A stretch of DNA of 62,309 bases, from contig CANQTA010000002.1 in the NCBI GenBank assembly GCA_947626655.1, positions 1 through 62,309 on the forward strand, in the 5' to 3' direction. The notes under the pieces were generated by a model. It was not told the DNA's origin, made no database searches, and worked only from the letters and a program-made list of their open reading frames with translations. Below, piece by piece: positions 4,559 to 57,921 of this stretch. The translations under genes were made by a program, and so were the position numbers. The stretch comes from an uncultured Bacilli bacterium (GTDB taxonomy: Bacteria > Bacillota_I > Bacilli_A > RF39 > UBA660). Numbering within the stretch: the first letter of the stretch is position 1; every line of letters starts with the position of its first letter.

Positions 4559-5842
4559 TTACGGCTTTAAAGCAGTTATAGGAATTACATATACTCCATC
4601 GTTTCGTTGATATGCATAATCAATCATTCCACTTACTACACATAAAAAATTAGGCTGTATCTCACAGCTTTTTGAAAACTTTAACAAATTATTTGAAGCT
4701 TCATCAATTTTGCCAACTCCTAATTTTACTTCTATAGCACCATAACTACCATCTCTTAATTCAACAATAGCATCCACTTCTTCTTTTGTATTATTATCAT
4801 GAAAATGATAAATACGACCACCTAAATATTCAATATATATTCTTAAATCTCTTATAACTAACGATTCAAACATAAAACCAAATAATTCTAAATCATTTAT
4901 TAATTGTTCTTGTTTTAATCCTAAAACAGCACATGCAAGAGAAGGATCAACAAAATGTCTTTTAACAGCTTTTCCTACTCTAACACTAGAACGAATCTTT
5001 TCAGAATATGGTAATTGATCTTGAAGTAAATGAATATTTTTTAATACATTTAAGTAATCTAATACTGTATTTCTACTTACTTTATAATCTTCCTCAGTTG
5101 TATAATAATCTATATCATTTATTAGTTTTTTATTAGTTACTATTGTCGATTCATTTCTTGCTAGTGATCTTAATAACATTCTCATTTTTTCTTTATCTCT
5201 TATTACCCCATCATAATTAATATCATGATCAAGAACATCATTTATATAACTTTCTGGTAATCTATAATAATTTTTTTTATCATATTTTAAACTAGCTGGC
5301 CATCCACCTCTTATAATTAAATCAGCAAGCATTTCAATAGTTGGTTTATTTTTTAAATTAACAGCAATTTTTTTATTATTAAATAAATCTAAAAGAGAAA
5401 CCAATCCTTCTGAATCATTTGATTCAAACAAAGACATAGTATACATATTTAATTTATAAATTCTTCCTGCCCCAGAATGAAAGATATTTTCAGGTTTAGC
5501 TGGCACTAAAGAACCAGTTAATATAAATTTACCACTTTTTCCATCTTCATCACACTTAGTTCTTACATCATCCCATATTTGTTCAATAGATTGCCATTCA
5601 TCTATTAATTCAGGATAATGACTTGTATAAATTAGTTCCCTATTTATTAAGGCTTTTTGATAATCAGAATTAGGATTATCCGATTTAGTTAATAAAACAT
5701 ATGAATTAGCATGATTTAAAGCTGTCCATGTTTTACCACAATATTTAGGACCTTCAATACTTATTGCTCCAAATAAATTTAATAATTCATCTATTTCGTC
5801 ATCAACTAATCTTTTTGTATAATTTTCTTTCGTTAAAGACAT
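4559..5842 (-). CDS. AAA-type ATPase, COG1373-like (AAA_14 + DUF4143 architecture)
   Basis: Walker A GPKYCGKTW, Walker B-like KFILTGS. The C-terminal half resembles DUF4143. Start moved to the internal MSLTKENY after AAAGGCGGAA. Confidence 0.75.
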   Translation of the reverse strand: MSLTKENYTKRLVDDEIDELLNLFGAISIEGPKYCGKTWTALNHANSYVLLTKSDNPNSDYQKALINRELIYTSHYPELIDEWQSIEQIWDDVRTKCDEDGKSGKFILTGSLVPAKPENIFHSGAGRIYKLNMYTMSLFESNDSEGLVSLLDLFNNKKIAVNLKNKPTIEMLADLIIRGGWPASLKYDKKNYYRLPESYINDVLDHDINYDGVIRDKEKMRMLLRSLARNESTIVTNKKLINDIDYYTTEEDYKVSRNTVLDYLNVLKNIHLLQDQLPYSEKIRSSVRVGKAVKRHFVDPSLACAVLGLKQEQLINDLELFGFMFESLVIRDLRIYIEYLGGRIYHFHDNNTKEEVDAIVELRDGSYGAIEVKLGVGKIDEASNNLLKFSKSCEIQPNFLCVVSGMIDYAYQRNDGVYVIPITALKP

Positions 5843-5900
5843 TTCTATTCCGCCTTTCCAAAAATAATATATCATAAAACTATTATTTTTTCAACATTCA

Positions 5901-5960
5901 TTGTGCAAACAGCATATTTTTTGTTGTGCAAATCGCACGGTTTTCATTGTGCAAACAGCA
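5901..5960. repeat. three direct 14-bp repeats TTGTGCAAA(C/T)(A/C)GCA with 23-bp period, upstream of the ATPase gene
   Basis: Copies at 5901-5914, 5924-5937 and 5947-5960. Copies 1 and 3 are identical. Each contains a TGC...GCA dyad. Confidence 0.7.
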
Positions 5961-5974
5961 TTAAATTTATAATA

Positions 5975-6169
5975 CAAAAAATTCAATTTAATTCAGAAGA
6001 AACCAACGAAATTTTCAAAATCTCAAGAAAAACTCACAAACTATCTTCAATACAATATTATTAATTTTATACTTACTAGAGAATATAATGCCATTTTGGC
6101 TACAGGCGATATATATCTGATATTGAAAATACTATTAAAGAATTTGCAAAAGACTCAGTTATATGCTGA
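5975..6169 (+). pseudogene. decayed paralog of the PIN gene at 1599-2114 (5' truncated, internal deletion, frameshift)
   Basis: 6026-6110 aligns with 1830-1910 (...IINFI..R..NAILATGD). 6112-6169 aligns with 2058-2114 (ISDI.N.I.EF.K.SV.C stop) but in a shifted frame. Similarity continues past the stop to about 6235. Confidence 0.65.
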
Positions 6170-6394
6170 ATCTTTTTATTTTTCAAATATCATTTAATAA
6201 GTTTAAATTTTTTAAACAATTTCAAAAGCTTATCTTGCCACCCTCCTACATTTATACAAATAAATTTTAATTTTATTTCATCAATTATAGGTATTTGTTG
6301 GTAATCTTCAATAACAAAATCATTTATTAATAAATTTTAATTAGATTATCAACTTATGTTAATAGTATTCTTTTAAAAATTTTCCTAAATCCAA

Positions 6395-7642
6395 TTAATT
6401 ATCTAATTTTTTTCGAATACTAGCGATAATTCTTTCTTTATTATTTTCTTGATAACCAGCTAATTTTCTAGTAAATAACAATTCTTTAACTACTTGAAGT
6501 TCCTTATCATTTACATTTTTTAACTTATTTAACCTTTTACTACTTATTTCTGAATTAGATAAACAATTAAAATAATCATCCATTGAATAATTAATAAAGT
6601 CTATCTTATCAGCAAATTTTTCTTTTAAATTACTAGCAATGATTAATCCTTCGGGATCAAAATCACCATTATAAAATAACTTATTACCACTTTCTATTAA
6701 TTTTTCTAAAATCAAATATACGCCATAATTAATAAAGCCATTTGTAACTATAACACAAACATTTAATTCATTAACCATTATTTCATTTAAAATTGAAGGA
6801 TTTTCAAAAACAAATACCATTTTATCTCTACTATCAAACTTACCAACATTTAAAATATTTTGCATGTTTAAAATCAAAGATTCTCTATTTTTGGCGAATG
6901 CATTTAAATATTCTTTATCAGTAATTAAATTATATGTTATAACAAAATTTGATAAATTATCTATTTCAATATTATATTCACTCAATAAATCTATTTTATC
7001 CTTCCTTGACTTTGGATAATCACATTTTCTTAAATAAGCCAGTGCATAAAGGAACAAAAGGCAATGCGAAGAATCCAAATCCAAATAATGGGGATCTCCT
7101 GTATACTTCGCTGCATAAACTGATAATAATTCTTTTTTCTTAGGTAAATTACTAATCAAATTAATTATATTTTCTAATTCATTATGCAACTTTAATTTAT
7201 TTTGTAAATATCTTTTATGAATTAAATTATAAAGATTATTTTTAGTTTCAATTGCCTCTTTTAACCATTTATTACCAAAAGTACTTTTTTCAATAAATTC
7301 ATTATAAAAATTTTCTTCTTCCATTTTTTTATTTATTTTATTTTCTTTATTACTAACTAATTTAATTTCTAAAAATTCTTCTACTAAAGTATTAATATCA
7401 AAATCGCTAAACCTTGAATTATTCATAATTTTTAAAAAATTTTTAATTGAAATATTAACATCATCATGAACATTTAATGAATAACCCAAAAATTTTGACA
7501 AACTCTTAGCTTCAATATCATTTATATCTTTTAATTTTATTATACCACCAAAAGAACCTAAAGACTGATATTTTTTATTTAATTCTTTAACAACTCTTTC
7601 AAATCCACCTTGATTTTTAAAAAAAATTGTATAATCATGCAT
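6395..7642 (-). CDS. jetD: Wadjet JetD-like protein (Toprim / DUF2220-DUF2399-type nuclease subunit)
   Basis: C-terminal FENPSILNE (Glu) and YNGDFDPEGLIIA (DxD) Toprim-like motifs. 8-nt overlap with the jetC stop. Confidence 0.78.
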   Translation of the reverse strand: MHDYTIFFKNQGGFERVVKELNKKYQSLGSFGGIIKLKDINDIEAKSLSKFLGYSLNVHDDVNISIKNFLKIMNNSRFSDFDINTLVEEFLEIKLVSNKENKINKKMEEENFYNEFIEKSTFGNKWLKEAIETKNNLYNLIHKRYLQNKLKLHNELENIINLISNLPKKKELLSVYAAKYTGDPHYLDLDSSHCLLFLYALAYLRKCDYPKSRKDKIDLLSEYNIEIDNLSNFVITYNLITDKEYLNAFAKNRESLILNMQNILNVGKFDSRDKMVFVFENPSILNEIMVNELNVCVIVTNGFINYGVYLILEKLIESGNKLFYNGDFDPEGLIIASNLKEKFADKIDFINYSMDDYFNCLSNSEISSKRLNKLKNVNDKELQVVKELLFTRKLAGYQENNKERIIASIRKKLDN

Positions 7643-10600: not shown

Positions 10601-11714
10601 TTTTACTTATTTTAATTTTTTCTGCTTCGTTAGCATTTATTATTTTACTTAAATCTGTAATCTTATTTTTTAAAATTTCAATATTTTCCTTAATTTTTGC
10701 CAATGATTCAATTTTTTGTTTTAAATCACTATTATCATACTGTTGTTTCATTTCACTATTTATTTCAATACTTTTTAAAACTTCTTCTAATCTTTTGTTA
10801 TTATCATCTAAGCTACTTTTTATATCATTAATATTTTTTTCGATATCTTTTAAATTTTTAATAAATTTATTATAATTATCTACTACATTCTTATAATTTT
10901 TAGCTTTTGTATATAAATGAACTGCATTGTAATTTTGAAAAATCTTCATAAAATCTTTTAAAGTTTTATTATTTTTTTCTAAAATTTCAATTTGTTCCTT
11001 AGTTTTATTCATTTCAGAAATGGCCTCAGATAAAGGTCTTAATTCTTCTTCAGTAAGAGGTTGTAATACTTTATTTAAAACATCAATTAAATTAGTTGGT
11101 TTATAATCTTTCGATAATTTATTACTTCTTAATTGTAACAATAACTTAATAAATTCATCATAAGTATCTAAATTAGCAAATCCGAACAATAATCTATTAA
11201 CCATTTCTTTATAATCTTTAGTACTATCAGTAAATTCATTTATTGTTCCAAGTCGTGATTTTAATTCGTTTTTTGTAAGAGGAATCTTGTTAACTGGATC
11301 TTTATATAAATAAAAATCTTTATTCACTCTTTTCCCATCTTTTAAACAAAATCCCCAAGAATCAACTCCTCTTCCTTTTCTACCTCTAAACCCTAGTCCA
11401 ATAGTTATATACTGTTTCATTTCTTCATTATAAGTTTCCATATAAAGATAAGCAGTTGATTCTTCTTTTTGAATTGATTCTGAATCGCCAATAATATAAT
11501 CTTCAATTTTTCTTTCTTTTGAACCAAAGGGATCTAACCGATCAGGAGATTTATTACCGTCTAAAATAAGAGGAATAAATGACTGCATCGTAACAGACTT
11601 ACCACTTCCATTAGTACCTCTTAAAATAAGTTTACCACCATAAAAATCATATTCTTCTTCATCATATAACCAAAAATTCAACAAGCCAATTTTCGTGATT
11701 TTAAATCTATCCAT
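7635..11714 (-). CDS. jetC: Wadjet JetC-like SMC-family ATPase (TIGR02680-like)
   Basis: Walker A GTNGSGKSV at the N terminus. About 900 aa of coiled-coil-like K/E/N/L-rich sequence. Signature FSGGERAKS and Walker B RIIALDEAFAGVD at the C terminus. Confidence 0.85.
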   Translation of the reverse strand: MDRFKITKIGLLNFWLYDEEEYDFYGGKLILRGTNGSGKSVTMQSFIPLILDGNKSPDRLDPFGSKERKIEDYIIGDSESIQKEESTAYLYMETYNEEMKQYITIGLGFRGRKGRGVDSWGFCLKDGKRVNKDFYLYKDPVNKIPLTKNELKSRLGTINEFTDSTKDYKEMVNRLLFGFANLDTYDEFIKLLLQLRSNKLSKDYKPTNLIDVLNKVLQPLTEEELRPLSEAISEMNKTKEQIEILEKNNKTLKDFMKIFQNYNAVHLYTKAKNYKNVVDNYNKFIKNLKDIEKNINDIKSSLDDNNKRLEEVLKSIEINSEMKQQYDNSDLKQKIESLAKIKENIEILKNKITDLSKIINANEAEKIKISKNIANLEDDIYKLKNELEELQIDLKTLANDSYFQEFKNYNLDIDNNDDDSVIKGIFMALHKYKDKVSQILELLNNEEKILNDSEETRIDFEKLNNTYQKLEEDLKANENNLKESIMSWEEDFINKVNNNEVLKLNDTYRKQIFELMNDYTKENFDIVKNLYNDYARDLINNFLSDNLSLENKLNVKNQEKSNLEHEYKTIELQDDVEIPSLNSETEEILKNNNIKSVPLYKCIEYKSSVNDKTKNNLESALLDLNILNAKIIDEKDISKLEKLGVQVLYLTKSTKKSDNLLKYFDIRIDKNIGISESYVKEILESISINANDIVSISENGKARMDILNSLASKDYKQSFIGYLKRLEIKKLKLRDLEDKIEVVNTEINNITNIINNNNSKIDVIKLEMKNLPDNKLINDILDNMFEIKSSLKWVDVKQKELEEKLIVYNNKLNEIKAELLDKKKDMLIPLNKESYKETLTVLGSINEMLQNFKNLKNIYVSKKEIKFSYQERLEDIINNIEYQLASKNEKIVELEINEENEKNITELLETKEFQEQKEKLLNIENDLRNLNKEKDELLKIIATLDRDIEYKNRDYEELQKNKEALSKELEIYKEIFLREYKLHYVYNIESNDTISLVKMVINEDNNRKDKNLMDVEKDFYKAFNFYSLELNDYSLRIVDLFNDYEEDDEHLRELYINNKRIDVIALYQGRKVNVIDLAQSLENDILENKDLISKQDRHLFEDILLNTVGEKIRNKINSSNEWVKKINNIMKTMQENSALRFKLVWKSNTVSNEGEIDTKELVRILQMDPLMLKDNDREELTNHFRTKIKKAEELYADSFVSFAKIIEEVLDYRSWFTFQLFYERKGEEFKELTDKTFAKFSGGERAKSMYIPLFASVYAKLNLARSNALRIIALDEAFAGVDEDNIREMFGILNYLDIDFIINSQVLWGDYDTINDLSICELIRPQNSSVVTVERYRWNGKYKELINNRKEYNEELENA

Positions 11715-52539: not shown

Positions 52540-54909
52540 TTACTTATCTCTTAACACTGCAGCAAATTTCTTTTCAACTGTTTCAATAATCTTATTAAAT
52601 ACCATCATTACTTCTTCATCAACTAAAGTTTTATTTTCATCTCTAAAAGTTAACTTATAAGCAATTGACTTCTTACCCTCACTAATATTTGGATATAAAT
52701 CAAAGACTTCGGCTGCTACTAATATACGTCCTCCTTCTTTTTTAATAACATTTTTAATATCTTCACTTTGAACTTGATTATCCACAATAAAAGCCATATC
52801 TTTAACTATTTCTGGATATTTAGAAACACTTTTAAATTTAAGCGCTTTAATACTTTTTTCATATAACTTTGTTAAAGAAATTTCACTTACATAAATATCA
52901 TCTTTCTTCAAGCTAGGATGTACCTTACCAATAACTCCAACTTCTTCTTTATCAACTAAAATTTTAGCACTTATACCAGGATGCAAGTCAGCTACTTTAT
53001 CTGCTACAAAACTATAACGATTTTTATATCCTAAATAATCCAATAAATTTTCTACAATTCCTTTAATTAAATAGAAATCGACTTTAACATTTACTCCTAA
53101 CCACTCATTAGTTAAATATTCCCCTTTCATTAAAAGAGCTACCTTTAAATCTTCTTGGAAATCTTTATCATAAGTTTTAGCTATTTCATAAATATTAACA
53201 TCTTTTACTCCTCTTGCTGTATTATAATCATAAACATTTAAAAGTGAAGGTAAAATACTCGTCCTAATCACCGATTTATCAATACTCATTGGATTTGGTA
53301 AAAGAGCATTTTCCCGAGCCTCATATTTAAATAATTTTGCCATTGCGGGACTTATCAAAGTATAAGTCTTACACTCATTTATCCCTAAAGTTCTTAATCT
53401 TCTAGAGGTCTCTTTTCTAATTTTTACATCGCCAACATATACTCCTTGTCGCGTTTCTCCTTTAGGCAGCGTGGAAACTAAATTATGATAACCATATAAT
53501 CTACCTATTTCTTCCGCAATATCATTAATATTTGGATCAATATCTAATCTTCTTCTAGGAATTTCTACTGTAAACATTTCATTTTGATATTCATAAGGAA
53601 AATCTAATCTTCCCAATTCAACTTTAACATCTTCATCACTTATTTTAATACCCAATATTTTGTTAACATCTTCTGTTTTAAATGTTACCTTTTTTACTTC
53701 TTTATCAACTTTATCATGACAAATAATTCCTTTTAATATCTTAGCATCAGCATATTTTTCTAATAAGTGACAAGCTCTTTCCATCGCCATCTTCGTATAT
53801 TCATAATTTAAACCTTTACCATATCTAATTGAAGCTTCACTTTTTAAATTTAAATGACTAGCAGTATTTCGAATAGATACGGCATCAAATATTGCACTTT
53901 CAATTAAAATATTTTTAGTTGTTGGTAATACTTCCGTATTTTCACCACCCATAACTCCAGCAATACATACTGGCTTTTGCCCATCAGTTATGACAATATC
54001 ATTTGCTTTTAAAACTCGCTCTTGCCCATCTAAAGTTTTAATAATCTCTTTATCATGAGCTTTTCTAACTAATATTTTATTACCTAAATAATCTTTATCG
54101 AAGAAATGAAGTGGTTGACCAAATTCTAACATAACATAATTAGAAATATCGACCACATTATTAATAGGTCGCATCCCTGCACTAATTAATCTCTTTTTAA
54201 TAAATTCTGGTGACTCTTTAATAACCACATCCTTGACCATTTTAGCTAAATAATATGGACAATCATCAGTTTCTACCTTAACTTCCATAAAATCATTAAC
54301 ATCTTCCTCTATTTCTTGATGCGTTAAATCCGGTAGAGTAACCTTTTTATTTAAAATACAACCCACTTCATAAGCAAAACCAATATGATAATAACAATCA
54401 TTATTCCGATGCTTATGAACATCCAATTCATATAAAACATCACTTATTCCTAAATAATCATTGGCATCACTTCCCACTAAAACATCACTTTCAACTTCAT
54501 GAATGCCCTTAGCATAAGTCTCTTCAGTCTTCTCTTCTACTCCTAGTTCAAACAAAGCACATAACATCCCATTGGATTCAACATCTCTAATTTTACCTTT
54601 TTTAATTTCAAAATTACCCGGAAGTACTGCCCCCGGAAGAGCTACAATAACTTTTATTCCTTTTCTAGCATTAGAAGCCCCACAAACAATTTGAACTGTT
54701 TCATTACCAACATCAACCATACATATTTTTAAATGATCACTATTAGGATGGGCTTCACAAGCAACAATTTCCCCAATAACTAAATTATTAATATGATTAT
54801 CATGTACAGCTTCAACATTAACTCCAGCTTTAGTTATTTTTACAGCTAATTCTTTTAAATCTTCACCATCTAAATTTACATAATCTTTAACCCAATTTAA
54901 ACTTATCAT
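52540..54909 (-). CDS. pheT: phenylalanine--tRNA ligase beta subunit
   Basis: Full-length architecture (tRNA-binding, B3/4, B5, FDX-ACB). TAATG-type junction with pheS. Confidence 0.95.
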   Translation of the reverse strand: MISLNWVKDYVNLDGEDLKELAVKITKAGVNVEAVHDNHINNLVIGEIVACEAHPNSDHLKICMVDVGNETVQIVCGASNARKGIKVIVALPGAVLPGNFEIKKGKIRDVESNGMLCALFELGVEEKTEETYAKGIHEVESDVLVGSDANDYLGISDVLYELDVHKHRNNDCYYHIGFAYEVGCILNKKVTLPDLTHQEIEEDVNDFMEVKVETDDCPYYLAKMVKDVVIKESPEFIKKRLISAGMRPINNVVDISNYVMLEFGQPLHFFDKDYLGNKILVRKAHDKEIIKTLDGQERVLKANDIVITDGQKPVCIAGVMGGENTEVLPTTKNILIESAIFDAVSIRNTASHLNLKSEASIRYGKGLNYEYTKMAMERACHLLEKYADAKILKGIICHDKVDKEVKKVTFKTEDVNKILGIKISDEDVKVELGRLDFPYEYQNEMFTVEIPRRRLDIDPNINDIAEEIGRLYGYHNLVSTLPKGETRQGVYVGDVKIRKETSRRLRTLGINECKTYTLISPAMAKLFKYEARENALLPNPMSIDKSVIRTSILPSLLNVYDYNTARGVKDVNIYEIAKTYDKDFQEDLKVALLMKGEYLTNEWLGVNVKVDFYLIKGIVENLLDYLGYKNRYSFVADKVADLHPGISAKILVDKEEVGVIGKVHPSLKKDDIYVSEISLTKLYEKSIKALKFKSVSKYPEIVKDMAFIVDNQVQSEDIKNVIKKEGGRILVAAEVFDLYPNISEGKKSIAYKLTFRDENKTLVDEEVMMVFNKIIETVEKKFAAVLRDK

Positions 54910-55958
54910 TAGTCGTCCTCCCTCCGATCAAAATTTTCTAATTCCCGCAAATCTGTTTGATAAAATGTTCTAATATCATTGATACCATATTTAAGCATCG
55001 CTAATCTTTCCGCCCCAAAACCAAAAGCAAAACCAGTCCATACTTTCGGATCATAACCACAATTTCTTAACACATTAGGATGCACAATCCCTGCTCCACT
55101 AACCGTAATCCAACCAGTATTTTTACATAAACTACAACCCTTACCTTTACATGCAAAACAAGAAATATCTGTTTCAACACTAGGCTCTGTAAATTGATAA
55201 TAACTTGGTCTAAATCTAGTTACACAATCTTCTCCAAATAGCTTTTTAGCAATAACATCAAAAGTACCTTTTAAATCTGATAAACTAACATCTTTATCTA
55301 CTAATAAACCCTCTATTTGCATAAATTGATGAGAATGAGTTGCATCATCAGCATCTCTTCGATAAGTTTTACCAGGACAAATCATCCTAATGGGTTTATC
55401 GCCCCCACTAGCAAGCATTACCCGCGCTTGCACTGGACTAGTTTGACTCCGCAATAAATAATCTTCATCTTTAACATAAAAAGTATCTTGCGCATCACGA
55501 GCTGGATGACCTTTTGGAATATTCAAAAGCTCAAAATTATAATGATCTTCTTCTATTTCTGGACCATCAACTACATCATAACCCATGGACATAAAAACAC
55601 TTTCAACTTCTTCAATAATTTTTTCCAAAATATTAGGAGCCCCATTTTTTATTTTAGTTCCTGGTAAAGTTACATCAACTGCTTCTTTAACTAACTTTTC
55701 ATTAATCGCTTTTTCTTCTAATTCTTTTTTAATTTTTTCAAAGTTTTCATTAAAAATATTTTTTACTTCATTTAAAGCAATTCCAAAATCTTTTTTATCT
55801 TCATTAGGTATTTCTTTAATCATACTACTAAGTTCTGTAATCTTACCATTTTTCCCCATATACTCTATTCTTATATTTTCTAACGTTTTCAAATCACTAA
55901 TATTTGTAAAAACATTACTTAAACTCTTTTTTACTTCAGCTATTTTCTCTTTATACAT
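54909..55958 (-). CDS. pheS: phenylalanine--tRNA ligase alpha subunit
   Basis: HPARDAQDTFY and class II motifs (FRPSYYQFTEPS, GFAFGFGAERL). Confidence 0.95.
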   Translation of the reverse strand: MYKEKIAEVKKSLSNVFTNISDLKTLENIRIEYMGKNGKITELSSMIKEIPNEDKKDFGIALNEVKNIFNENFEKIKKELEEKAINEKLVKEAVDVTLPGTKIKNGAPNILEKIIEEVESVFMSMGYDVVDGPEIEEDHYNFELLNIPKGHPARDAQDTFYVKDEDYLLRSQTSPVQARVMLASGGDKPIRMICPGKTYRRDADDATHSHQFMQIEGLLVDKDVSLSDLKGTFDVIAKKLFGEDCVTRFRPSYYQFTEPSVETDISCFACKGKGCSLCKNTGWITVSGAGIVHPNVLRNCGYDPKVWTGFAFGFGAERLAMLKYGINDIRTFYQTDLRELENFDRREDD

Positions 55959-56750
55959 TTATATCTTCCTCTCTTCTCTCTCAGTTAACGGAAATAATCT
56001 ATATAACTCTTCATCACTTATCTTATATATTTTATAAAACCTTTCCGAACTATTAAATATTCTATTACAATTCTCTTTAGTTACTACTTCCCCCCGCGAT
56101 TCTAAAAATCTAACTCGAGCATAAGTTTTTTTCACACTTTGCATAATTTTCTTTGTATCTTTTATGATAATATCCTCTAAACCTAAACTTTTTAATAACT
56201 TTACTTTTTCCCGAATATTAGGAAAGCCATCACTAAATAATTGTGGATGCCGGACTGTCATATCATGGACTTCACTTTGGGTATAACCTAAAGACATAAT
56301 ATCAGTTATCTTTTGTTGTAAATTTTCTATACTAAGTTCTACAATAATTGAACATAACCCAAACATATATAAAACTTCTGTTTCTGTATATCCCAAACTT
56401 TCAATCCGTGCTAATCTTTCAGATAAAGTCTTTGTATTTCTTCCTAACATATTGGGACACATACTTATCATCTTGATAATTCTTTCTTGGGAATAATTTA
56501 ATTTTTCAAAATACATAATAACATTATTAATTAAATTACTAGATATAACTGATAACACTGGATATTTTCTAAAAACACAAACTACCCGTTCCCATTCAAA
56601 ACCATAAGAAGTAAACAACTCAATATTTTCTTTTAAATGTCTTACAATTACTTCTTCAGTATACTCATTAACTGTTTCATTTTTTACAATTTTATTAATT
56701 ACTGTTTCCGGAAAATTATAAGTTTTTAAAAATTCTCTAACCAATTTCAT
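55959..56750 (-). CDS. mTERF-like helical-repeat protein B
   Basis: Tandem units of about 30-35 aa of the type L..LG(Y/F)(T/S)..E(V/I)......P.(L/M)(L/F), e.g. IESLGYTETEVLYMF, IMSLGYTQSEVHDMTVRHPQLF, LKSLGLEDIII. The stop abuts the pheS start. Confidence 0.55.
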   Translation of the reverse strand: MKLVREFLKTYNFPETVINKIVKNETVNEYTEEVIVRHLKENIELFTSYGFEWERVVCVFRKYPVLSVISSNLINNVIMYFEKLNYSQERIIKMISMCPNMLGRNTKTLSERLARIESLGYTETEVLYMFGLCSIIVELSIENLQQKITDIMSLGYTQSEVHDMTVRHPQLFSDGFPNIREKVKLLKSLGLEDIIIKDTKKIMQSVKKTYARVRFLESRGEVVTKENCNRIFNSSERFYKIYKISDEELYRLFPLTEREERKI

Positions 56751-57141
56751 CTTCAACCTCATCAATAAGCCATGGTTCATCACTCAAAGCATTAATAATC
56801 TCAGTTCTACTTAAACCTAAAGCTAATTTTTCTCTAATATATAAATCTAATTCCCGAGCATCAATATTCAAAAACAAAGTATAAGAATCAAATATTACAT
56901 CTAAATTCTTAAACCCCATATAATTCATATAATATATTAATTCTTTTAATTCTTGACTATCTTTTTTTAAAAAATAAGGATTACCCACTATAATATTGTT
57001 AATATTATCTTGATTACACCCAATATTTTTTAATATTTTGATATTTACTTCTAAATTATCTAAAAGTGAATCATCAATAAAATCTACCATATTTTTAATA
57101 TCGATTTCTCTTATACCCATATTTAATAATTTATCAATCAT
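56737..57141 (-). CDS. mTERF-like helical-repeat protein A (134 aa from MIDKLLNMGI)
   Basis: LLNMGIREIDIKNMV, LKNIGCNQDNINNIIVGNPYFL, MNYMGFKNLDVIF, LALGLSRTEIINALSDEPWLI. The first 23 codons of the track ORF overlap the T-box. Confidence 0.5.
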   Translation of the reverse strand: MIDKLLNMGIREIDIKNMVDFIDDSLLDNLEVNIKILKNIGCNQDNINNIIVGNPYFLKKDSQELKELIYYMNYMGFKNLDVIFDSYTLFLNIDARELDLYIREKLALGLSRTEIINALSDEPWLIDEVEDEIG

Positions 57142-57350
57142 CAAATCACTTCTTTCTAAAAAAAATTTCATAAACATCGGTAAAGGACGAAACATAATCC
57201 GCGGTACCACCTTTATTTATGAAATTATCATACTCTTTAATTCGTAATGTGAATCACTCTTAAAATACTCCATAATTCGAAATTCAATTAATTATTTATC
57301 TAAAAATACTTTCACCAATGTATTTTTTCTCTTATTAAGAAACTTAATTA
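57142..57350 (-). promoter_or_regulatory. T-box leader, probable Phe specifier
   Basis: Minus strand AAAGGTGGTACCGCG at 57200-57214. Stem I distal loop AATAC-ATTGGTGAAA-GTATT (GGTGAAAG = 57309-57316). AGAGA at 57328-57332. TTC at 57279-57281 in GAATTTCGAATT. Long helix plus T-run at 57158-57226. Confidence 0.8.
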
Positions 57351-57381
57351 ATTTACTATAATTATCTCATCATATTTTCTT

Positions 57382-57921
57382 TTAATAATTTTCAGCTTTT
57401 CTTTCAAAATAACTTTGTGCATGTTTACATACAGGACAAACTTCTGGGGCTTTCTTACCAACAACTACATGTCCACAATTACGACATACCCAAATCGTAT
57501 CACCTTCACTAGAGAATACTAAGCCTTCATCAATATTAGCAATTAATTTTCTATATCTTTCTTCATGTTCTTTTTCAATTTGACCAACACTTTCAAATAA
57601 ATAAGCAATTCGCTCAAAACCTTCTTCTTTAGCTACTTTCGCAAATTCTTGATACATATCAGTCCACTCATAATTTTCTCCAGCAGCAGCATCTTCTAAA
57701 TTAGTATGAGTATCAGGTACTTCTCCATCATGTAATTCTTTAAACCATAATTTAGCATGTTCTTTTTCATTATTAGCTGTTTCTTCAAAAATAGCTGCTA
57801 TTTGCTCATAACCATCTTTTCTCGCTTTACTTGCATAATAAGTATATTTATTTCTTGCTTGACTTTCTCCAGCAAAAGCTGCCATTAAATTAGCTTCCGT
57901 TTTTGAACCTTTTAGTTCCAT
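57382..57921 (-). CDS. rbr: rubrerythrin
   Basis: Ferritin-like ExxH motifs ([16 protein letters not shown]) plus C-terminal CRNCG...CPVCKH. Start at MELKGSK after AAGGAAG. Confidence 0.9.

Follow-up and report, generated by a model that had tools for sequence, protein, structure and literature searches.

Why should two genes for repeat proteins stand between a tRNA-sensing leader and the genes for phenylalanyl-tRNA synthetase? The question is raised by a stretch of DNA of 62,309 nucleotides from an uncultured Bacilli bacterium (contig CANQTA010000002.1; we call the whole of this stretch the window), in which a phenylalanine (Phe) T-box leader is followed by two open reading frames (ORFs) with mTERF-like repeats, ORF1 and ORF2, and only then by pheS and pheT. 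The reading direction is that of the minus strand, and all coordinates are positions in the whole stretch. The answer we favor, to which we assign a probability of about 0.7, is that one T-box responsive to tRNA-Phe gates a short mTERF gene, a long mTERF gene, pheS and pheT, that the mTERF pair was inserted into this operon, and that its coupling to tRNA-Phe is incidental.

The leader (57379-57180; 57379-57158, ~220 nt, when its terminator is included) is followed by ORF1 (57141-56737), which encodes a short mTERF-like protein of 134 aa and is preceded by a weak Shine-Dalgarno sequence, GAAAGAAG (57156-57149). The start of ORF2 (56750-55959; long mTERF-like protein, 263 aa) overlaps the stop of ORF1, with 14 nt in common. 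The TAA of ORF2 is followed, with zero bases between, by the ATG of pheS (55958-54909), whose Shine-Dalgarno sequence, GAGAGGAAG, lies within the 3' end of ORF2, and pheT (54909-52540) overlaps the pheS stop. The junctions therefore agree with a preliminary description of the locus, which had pheS starting on the base after ORF2 stops, and we read T-box, ORF1, ORF2, pheS and pheT as a single gap-free, operon-like unit. The insert has a GC content of 22-29%, within the local range and with no clear foreign-DNA signature, and the ORF1 and ORF2 proteins are identical in three further samples.

The longest form of ORF1 is 157 aa from a GTG (56737-57210), and the public gene call is 152 aa from an ATG; both of these longer starts fall inside the antiterminator, and the extended frames run on through the terminator. 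Because the protein beginning MIDKLL aligns end to end with short homologs, we place the true start at 57141, giving 134 aa. The idea that ORF1 and ORF2 are one frameshifted gene of ~390 aa was ruled out: independent short partners of ~125-131 aa match ORF1 over its whole length, and ORF2 aligns from residue 1 with homologs of 263 to 299 aa.

The leader was recognized in a local scan of a 401-nt stretch, where 57379-57180 aligned end to end with model positions 1-219 of the Rfam T-box model RF00230 (66.3 bits, E 2.3e-14). The Phe T-box proposed from motifs in the preliminary description is thus present, and those motifs, including the helix followed by an eight-U run, were all found on the minus strand where they had been placed. 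The score lies below the RF00230 gathering score of 93 bits owing to the low G+C content of the RNA (24%) and to the deletion of the Stem II portion of the model. Related leaders are also below this score (88.3 bits at locus L019 and 56.4 bits at locus L046), and an Rfam scan of the whole window at the gathering threshold missed the T-box. The sole match in the window at that threshold is a ribosomal protein L10 leader (RF00557; 30170-30291, minus strand; 67.9 bits).

Stem I aligned to RF00230 in its specifier loop, AG bulge and distal loop. The AG bulge, AGAGA (57332-57328), falls on the AGAGA of the Rfam consensus, and the distal loop, GGTGAAAG (GGUGAAAG as RNA; 57316-57309), on the consensus GGUGaaA. 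The core of the specifier loop, GAA-U-UUC-G (GAATTTCG; 57285-57278), presents the S-turn GAA, the Phe codon UUC (57281-57279) and then a purine. Stem III (UAUGA/UCAUA, 57232-57218) has the purine string AAGAG on its 5' flank and AA on its 3' flank, as in the motif 5'-RRRxG-Stem III-AA-3' (PMC7583486). The T-box sequence AAAGGTGGTACCGCG (also written AAAGGUGGUACCGCG; 57214-57200) provides the 5' side of the antiterminator (57214-57183), in which helix A1 (AAGG/CCUU, 57213-57210/57186-57183), the 7-nt bulge UGGUACC (57209-57203) and helix A2 (GCGGA/UUCGU with a G-U closing pair, 57202-57198/57191-57187) can all be placed. By the definition of the class, the UGGN of the bulge pairs with the NCCA end of the tRNA.

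Stem II and the IIA/B pseudoknot are missing. In the alignment 21 model positions correspond to one nucleotide, with low posterior probability, and between Stem I and Stem III there remains a short hairpin with an F-box-like CAUUA (57233-57270); the L019 leader shows the same deletion. The specifier GAA-(N)-UUC-R is kept in nearly all of ~70 related pheS leaders, the L019 and L046 leaders likewise carry UUC, and the leader as a whole is ~85% identical to that of the closest relative, L012. From this anatomy we classify the leader as a Phe-specific transcriptional class I T-box.

How this leader would terminate transcription is less ordinary. The minimum free energy fold and every near-optimal fold hold one long hairpin right before the U-run, an intrinsic terminator (57226-57158) that encloses the antiterminator. 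Its base helix is 13 bp long and AU-rich (57226-57214 with 57176-57164); above it stand GGUGG/UUACC and then the A2 hairpin, and the eight-U run (57165-57158) comes directly after the helix. The 5' arm of the terminator overlaps both the 3' half of Stem III (UCAUA, 57222-57218) and the UGG of the T-box bulge. Because this arm holds the Stem III 3' half together with the UGG needed for pairing with the tRNA acceptor end, the terminator and the read-through state are mutually exclusive, by way of Stem III and the T-box 5' strand and not by way of the 3' strands of A1 and A2, from which the canonical T-box terminator is built (PMC7583486). The preliminary description had remarked, correctly, that the U-run helix encloses the antiterminator, which holds in related leaders as well; its further statement that exclusive terminator and antiterminator helices could not be resolved is superseded by this arrangement and by the covariation described below.

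The leaders of the relatives fall into three platform types, of which the enclosing type seen in the window comprises most. Some leaders, such as those of L033, L062 and L070, have the canonical platform. In a third type (L017, L019, L036, L059 and L090), it is the T-box sequence itself, GGUGGUACC(A), that pairs, its partner being a GGUAUC/GGUAGC farther downstream, immediately ahead of the U-run. For leaders of the L019 type (L019 5262-5439) the Rfam alignment contains no Stem III hairpin, though Stem III has been reported to be an integral and indispensable part of the tRNA-sensing "discriminator" (PMC7583486).

Across 35 distinct leaders of the enclosing type, one run of five nucleotides (offsets -11 to -7 from GGUGG) takes part both in Stem III and in the base helix of the terminator, and compensatory changes occur in both helices. 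Offset -11 may serve as an example: there the terminator has U-A in 15 leaders and C-G in 20, and Stem III has A-U in 8 and G-C in 20. In 26 of 36 leaders the 3' arm can pair with every position of the 8-nt core of its own shared strand; when a core is set against the arm of a leader that has a different core, this holds for 81 of 1076 pairings. These patterns indicate that the enclosing terminator is real and clade-wide, not peculiar to the window. In a limited search, which is not proof of novelty, no description of a Stem III-competing platform was found in the T-box review (PMC7583486) or in the TBDB paper.

We propose that the leader acts like a normal T-box with a rewired expression platform. 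The strand made up of the Stem III 3' half and the T-box GGUGG would have a choice of partners: for read-through, the Stem III 5' half together with the acceptor end of the tRNA; for termination, the downstream arm beside the U-run. By analogy with other T-boxes, we infer that uncharged tRNA-Phe is the antiterminating ligand.

What, then, are the two proteins placed behind this leader? Both match the mTERF family PF02536 (31.5 bits for ORF1 and 63.5 bits for ORF2) above the Pfam curated cut-off of 23.1 bits. A profile of ORF2 and its homologs, compared with solved structures, matched human MTERF3 (3m66) with an E of 1.7e-18 and chains of MTERF3, MTERF1 and MTERF4 with E from 1e-18 to 1e-14; it also matched the Tetrahymena mitoribosomal protein mS93. 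The AlphaFold2 (AF2) model of ORF2 (predicted local distance difference test score, pLDDT, 93.6; predicted template-modeling score, pTM, 0.81) is a superhelical array of repeated three-helix units. When this model was compared with the PDB by Foldseek, the 17 best matches were all mTERF proteins, headed by 3m66 (template-modeling, TM, scores 0.74/0.73), and further matches included MTERF1, mS93 and MTERF4. ORF2 in addition bears a bacterial C-terminal cap motif, K..MQS....YAR..F (PKxLMQSxxLSYARYxF). ORF1 is homologous over its full length, at 30% identity and with E down to 3e-16, to short partners of 124-131 aa encoded beside long mTERF genes elsewhere (L002_131, L003_124 and L007_126).

These results uphold the mTERF-like character that had been suggested for the first two genes after the leader, and we assign ORF1 and ORF2 to the prokaryotic branch of the family, ORF2 on the strength of its predicted fold as well. 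The genes lie in a bacterial operon, between a T-box and pheST, and so outside the organelle-targeted eukaryotic setting of the mTERF superfamily. NCBIfam, PADLOC and PHROGs contain no family for ORF1, ORF2 or the class of 386-aa mTERF-like proteins described below. Beyond the pair, no second mTERF gene was found in the window. A marginal tblastn match (10605-11054, minus strand; E 0.013) to a 366-aa mTERF-like protein of L002 was not confirmed by the family hidden Markov model and is probably due to chance.

The mTERF family was regarded as essentially organellar and eukaryotic in the preliminary description, and a 2026 plant paper states that it is absent from prokaryotes (PMC12977773). Neither view can be kept, since prokaryotic mTERF-like tandem-repeat proteins, named pTERF, were published in 2024 (Nucleic Acids Res; PMC11417379), and a sizeable bacterial branch emerges from our own searches. 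A profile search of 1.84 billion cluster representatives returned 4653 matches with E<=1e-3, 1975 with E<=1e-10 and 332 with E<=1e-30, many of them aligned through the bacterial C-terminal cap. The homologs are named no further than one "hypothetical protein" and come nearly all from metagenome assemblies; some of their contigs are labeled XIEF21 and STEW19, which we take to be rumen sample sets. In several very long proteins (P0030, 2013 aa; P0053, 1589 aa; P0097, P0112 and P0123), several stretches match the bacterial mTERF profile, with E from 1e-54 to 1e-102.

According to the abstract and the pTERF section of the 2024 paper, pTERF proteins occur in metagenome-assembled genomes (MAGs) of gut Bacillota, carry 3-11 repeats of ~35 aa and bind double-stranded DNA (dsDNA) sequence-specifically with nanomolar affinity. 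There, pTERF1 (MBQ3414883.1) and pTERF2 were assayed by electrophoretic mobility shift, bio-layer interferometry and systematic evolution of ligands by exponential enrichment (SELEX); pTERF1 binds ACTNNNAGTC with a Kd of 1.9 nM and pTERF2 binds another motif (PMC11417379). In our material, ORF2 consists of three-helix units, a 483-aa mTERF-like protein of L046 contains 9.8 copies of a 105-bp (35-aa) repeat with 88% identity and thus has the repeat period of pTERF1, and the hosts are gut Bacilli MAGs. Matches to the L046 repeat protein in NCBIfam, PADLOC and PHROGs held no individually significant stretch and were treated as repeat artifacts. The window proteins most probably belong to the published pTERF group, and by analogy the helical-repeat solenoids of ORF1 and ORF2 would be expected to bind dsDNA sequence-specifically.

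Whether such proteins belong functionally with PheRS is a comparative question. Using PheS as the query against a genome collection, we gathered 80 related pheS loci, all from bacterial MAGs; PheS places the host among uncultured gut Bacilli. In L012, whose PheS is 83% identical and which is sister to the window in a neighbor-joining tree of PheS, the 3' end of rubrerythrin recurs, and the near-identical leader after it is followed directly by pheS, without the mTERF pair. L012 and the window share the old Shine-Dalgarno sequence, AGAAAGA-GUGAU, but in the window ~1.2 kb of additional DNA separates it from the pheS ATG. The order T-box, repeat gene, repeat gene, pheS, for which the preliminary description looked to related genomes, is therefore not conserved, and elsewhere the slot holds unrelated genes.

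The T-box lies within ~60-190 nt of the start of the pheS match in most of the 80 relatives and 367-2757 nt upstream of it in 16; L046 is not counted among the 16, since its divergent T-box sequence escaped the motif search. The genes in the slot include a hydrolase of the haloacid dehalogenase (HAD) type at nine loci (for example, L039 7304-8002), a short-chain dehydrogenase/reductase (SDR) in L081 (3956-4841), ORFs of 95 to 123 aa in L036 (7634-8001), L090, L017 and L058, a six-gene block in L057 (5244-8001) and a single 375-aa mTERF-like gene in L019. In L046 the slot is occupied by an alpha/beta hydrolase, and an mTERF pair lies just upstream of the T-box instead. The HAD insert is patchy on the PheS tree, and among the 80 loci only L019 and L046 have mTERF genes within 8 kb of pheS. 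Nearest tree neighbors lack mTERF genes in each case (L012 for the window, L059 for L019 and L013 for L046), and identity between the window pair and the single L019 gene is only ~26%, with different architectures. We regard the mTERF pair as a recent, lineage-specific insertion of ~1.2 kb into a slot that unrelated genes have also taken. Both in the window and in L019, the incoming gene starts where pheS of the sister lineage starts, which implies that the old ribosome-binding site was taken over.

Elsewhere, most mTERF loci are found without a T-box or pheS in the vicinity. L001 carries three mTERF genes in tandem beside two unrelated genes, for a penicillin-binding protein (PBP) and def, and L002 a six-gene mTERF array directly after ssb. 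In L003, L007, L009, L010 and L011, a long (386-402 aa) and a short (124-129 aa) mTERF gene form a pair divergent from cvpA; no T-box was found at the mTERF loci of L001, L002 or L003. Directly downstream of the pair lies rnhC, for RNase HIII, in four of these loci (L007 1635-4081, L009 2042-4518, L010 769-3245 and L011 1989-4469; long genes of 386-391 aa and short genes of 126-129 aa), and the L003 contig ends after the short gene. The 483-aa gene of L046 with its overlapping short partner of 140 aa (5202-7032) is flanked directly by polC on the upstream side and by the Phe T-box on the downstream side. The recurring unit thus appears to be a long+short pair, usually at the promoter-proximal end of a housekeeping operon, and because it recurs in other genomes, ORF1 and ORF2 probably act as a translationally coupled pair. 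The neighbors polC, ssb and rnhC hint at DNA transactions. The abstract and the pTERF section of the 2024 paper make no mention of long+short pairs, tandem gene arrays, rnhC/polC/ssb neighbors or T-box control (PMC11417379).

This comparative picture bears on the proposal, made in the preliminary description, that the repeat proteins are coregulated with PheRS by the charging of tRNA-Phe. As a statement about structure the proposal stands: the pair sits behind the T-box and in front of pheS. As a statement about a dedicated link it is weakened by L012, which has no insert, by the unrelated genes in the slot elsewhere and by the mTERF loci without a T-box. The pair could nevertheless be an effector of Phe starvation, a DNA- or RNA-binding protein pair made only when tRNA-Phe is uncharged. 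Eukaryotic mTERFs act on tRNA and rRNA genes, MTERF1 was crystallized on a site in tRNA-Leu(UUR), and plant mTERF6 is needed for the maturation of tRNA-Ile. By analogy with mTERF6, the targets of such an effector might be tRNA-Phe, pheST expression or a wider starvation regulon. The window genes are intact and translationally coupled, with proteins that recur unchanged in other samples, and mTERF genes adjoin the pheS T-box in three sublineages, behind it in the window and L019 and just in front of it in L046. However, the L046 pair is outside T-box control, and the single L019 gene has low identity to the window pair and another architecture; with the pair missing from the sister lineage L012, unrelated enzymes in the slot of other relatives and most mTERF loci away from any T-box or pheS, we consider this explanation, targets included, unlikely. 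A dedicated link of the repeat proteins to tRNA-Phe charging is possible rather than favored, and the one observation that speaks for it is the three separate gains beside the leader.

A broader claim would join the two unusual features of the locus, in that the mTERF pair would be the true output of the Phe T-box, as a DNA-binding regulator or a binder of tRNA or rRNA genes made only when tRNA-Phe is uncharged, and, independently, the leader would use an expression platform of this clade that has not been described. If this were true, a protein-mediated starvation response would be wired to a tRNA-sensing riboswitch in gut bacteria with reduced genomes, and the three mTERF gains beside the pheS leader would reflect selection for the coupling. 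We judge it unlikely.

A role in genome maintenance is suggested by the neighborhoods: the pair might act at boundaries of replication and transcription, for example as a polar barrier to forks or transcription like MTERF1, mtDBP or DmTTF, with the T-box supplying expression only. In its favor are polC immediately upstream in L046, ssb immediately upstream of the L002 array and rnhC immediately downstream in four loci, together with the nanomolar dsDNA binding given for the pTERF family in the abstract and pTERF section of its description (PMC11417379). This evidence is one of neighborhood and comes from eight loci; the neighbors in L001, PBP and def, are unrelated. As a competitor to the favored reading we find it improbable, and it is in any case compatible with that reading and not exclusive of it.

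The T-box starts 3 nt past the rubrerythrin stop (57384-57382) in both the window (57382-57420) and L012, so that its promoter must lie within the rubrerythrin coding sequence or the leader must be transcribed by read-through from rubrerythrin. The motif TTGAAA is conserved ~35 nt upstream of the leader, inside the rubrerythrin coding sequence. A consensus scan of 54800-57700 for promoters and terminators gave nothing exceeding shuffled expectation, in line with a single operon; the scan demands three G-C pairs and so also missed the AU-rich terminator of the leader. That the T-box has decayed, with the four genes constitutive through rubrerythrin read-through or an internal promoter, might be argued from its score under the gathering threshold, the missing Stem II and the spacing of 3 nt between the rubrerythrin stop and a leader for which no promoter was identified, but is very improbable, as all core elements are intact and conserved with relatives (UUC and purine, AGAGA, distal loop, purine string, Stem III, 7-nt bulge, G-U pair and eight-U terminator), compensatory changes keep both alternative helices in 35 leaders, which is unexpected for a dead element, and related leaders fall below the threshold as well, owing to their AT-rich, reduced form.

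Several points weigh against the favored reading and keep its probability where we have put it. The sub-threshold T-box score is one, and the consensus scan identified no promoter for the leader; an internal pheS promoter is conceivable in DNA so rich in AT. No tRNA genes were found in the window, tRNA-Phe included, whose anticodon and discriminator base might be matched to the leader. The single-sequence model of ORF1 is all-helical and of low confidence (pLDDT 59), and a word-indexed search for homologs of ORF1 recovered only ORF1 itself. Membership of the pTERF group rests on a shared Pfam motif, repeat period, host and habitat. Finally, three sublineages, represented by the window, L019 and L046, have mTERF genes beside the pheS T-box that the nearest sampled relative of each lacks, which appears to be more than expected by chance for a rare family and leaves room for a functional link.

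Taken with these points, we still favor a transcriptional T-box that senses uncharged tRNA-Phe and gates the four-gene operon ORF1-ORF2-pheS-pheT. The pair would have entered precisely at the junction of the ancestral ribosome-binding site of pheS with its start codon, such that ORF1 would now use the old Shine-Dalgarno sequence and pheS a new one within the 3' end of ORF2. ORF1 and ORF2 would act as a coupled long+short pair of DNA-binding solenoids. Their expression would be mechanically tied to uncharged tRNA-Phe as a by-product of a permissive, well-expressed slot. Because the comparative picture is that of a recent arrival in a slot that also holds unrelated genes, the coregulation is structural but probably incidental rather than a dedicated Phe-linked function.

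For the study of mTERFs, the long+short pairs, the tandem arrays and the polC, ssb and rnhC neighbors offer handles on the ancestral or bacterial function of the family. For riboswitch biology, the clade supplies natural variants in which a Phe T-box lacks Stem II, the terminator competes with Stem III or no Stem III is evident, and these test the model of an indispensable Stem III and a terminator formed from the A1/A2 3' strands. For genome evolution, the leader-pheS junction appears to be a repeatedly used landing pad at which incoming genes take over the old ribosome-binding site.

Compared with known systems, the core of this locus is judged to be ordinary, a Phe T-box controlling pheST. 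Its departures are the mTERF cargo, the Stem III-competing platform combined with loss of Stem II in a non-glycine T-box, and the wider bacterial mTERF family to which the cargo belongs. The window proteins resemble the pTERFs, as these are presented in the abstract and pTERF section of their description, in their Pfam mTERF motifs, repeats of ~35 aa, occurrence in gut Bacillota MAGs and predicted three-helix solenoid resembling MTERF1; they differ in that the repeats of ORF2 are diverged and not near-identical, near-perfect 35-aa arrays being found in the relative L046. With human MTERF3, MTERF1 and MTERF4 (3m66, 3mva and 4fp9), ORF2 shares its fold (TM 0.74 to 3m66) and significant profile similarity, but identity is only 16-19%, and ORF2 is bacterial, has no targeting peptide, carries the bacterial-specific C-terminal cap and is accompanied in its operon by a short paralog of ~130 aa.

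The leader shares with the pheS and pheST T-boxes of Bacillota (RF00230) a Stem I with AG bulge, distal loop and GAA-UUC-purine specifier, Stem III, the UGGUACC bulge, A1 and A2, a U-run terminator and the control of pheST. Unlike them, it lacks Stem II and scores 66 against 93 bits, and two non-synthetase genes stand between it and pheS. In contrast to the canonical T-box (PMC7583486), its terminator pairs the 3' half of Stem III and the T-box 5' strand with a downstream arm and encloses the antiterminator. The operon is also comparable to T-box operons that include non-synthetase genes, for amino-acid biosynthesis or transport, in which one T-box likewise gates several cotranscribed genes. 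To our knowledge, the cargo of known T-box operons is linked to the amino acid that is sensed. Here, however, it is a putative nucleic-acid-binding repeat pair. Relatives carry a HAD hydrolase, an SDR, an alpha/beta hydrolase or small ORFs in its place, and nothing obvious connects any of these with phenylalanine.

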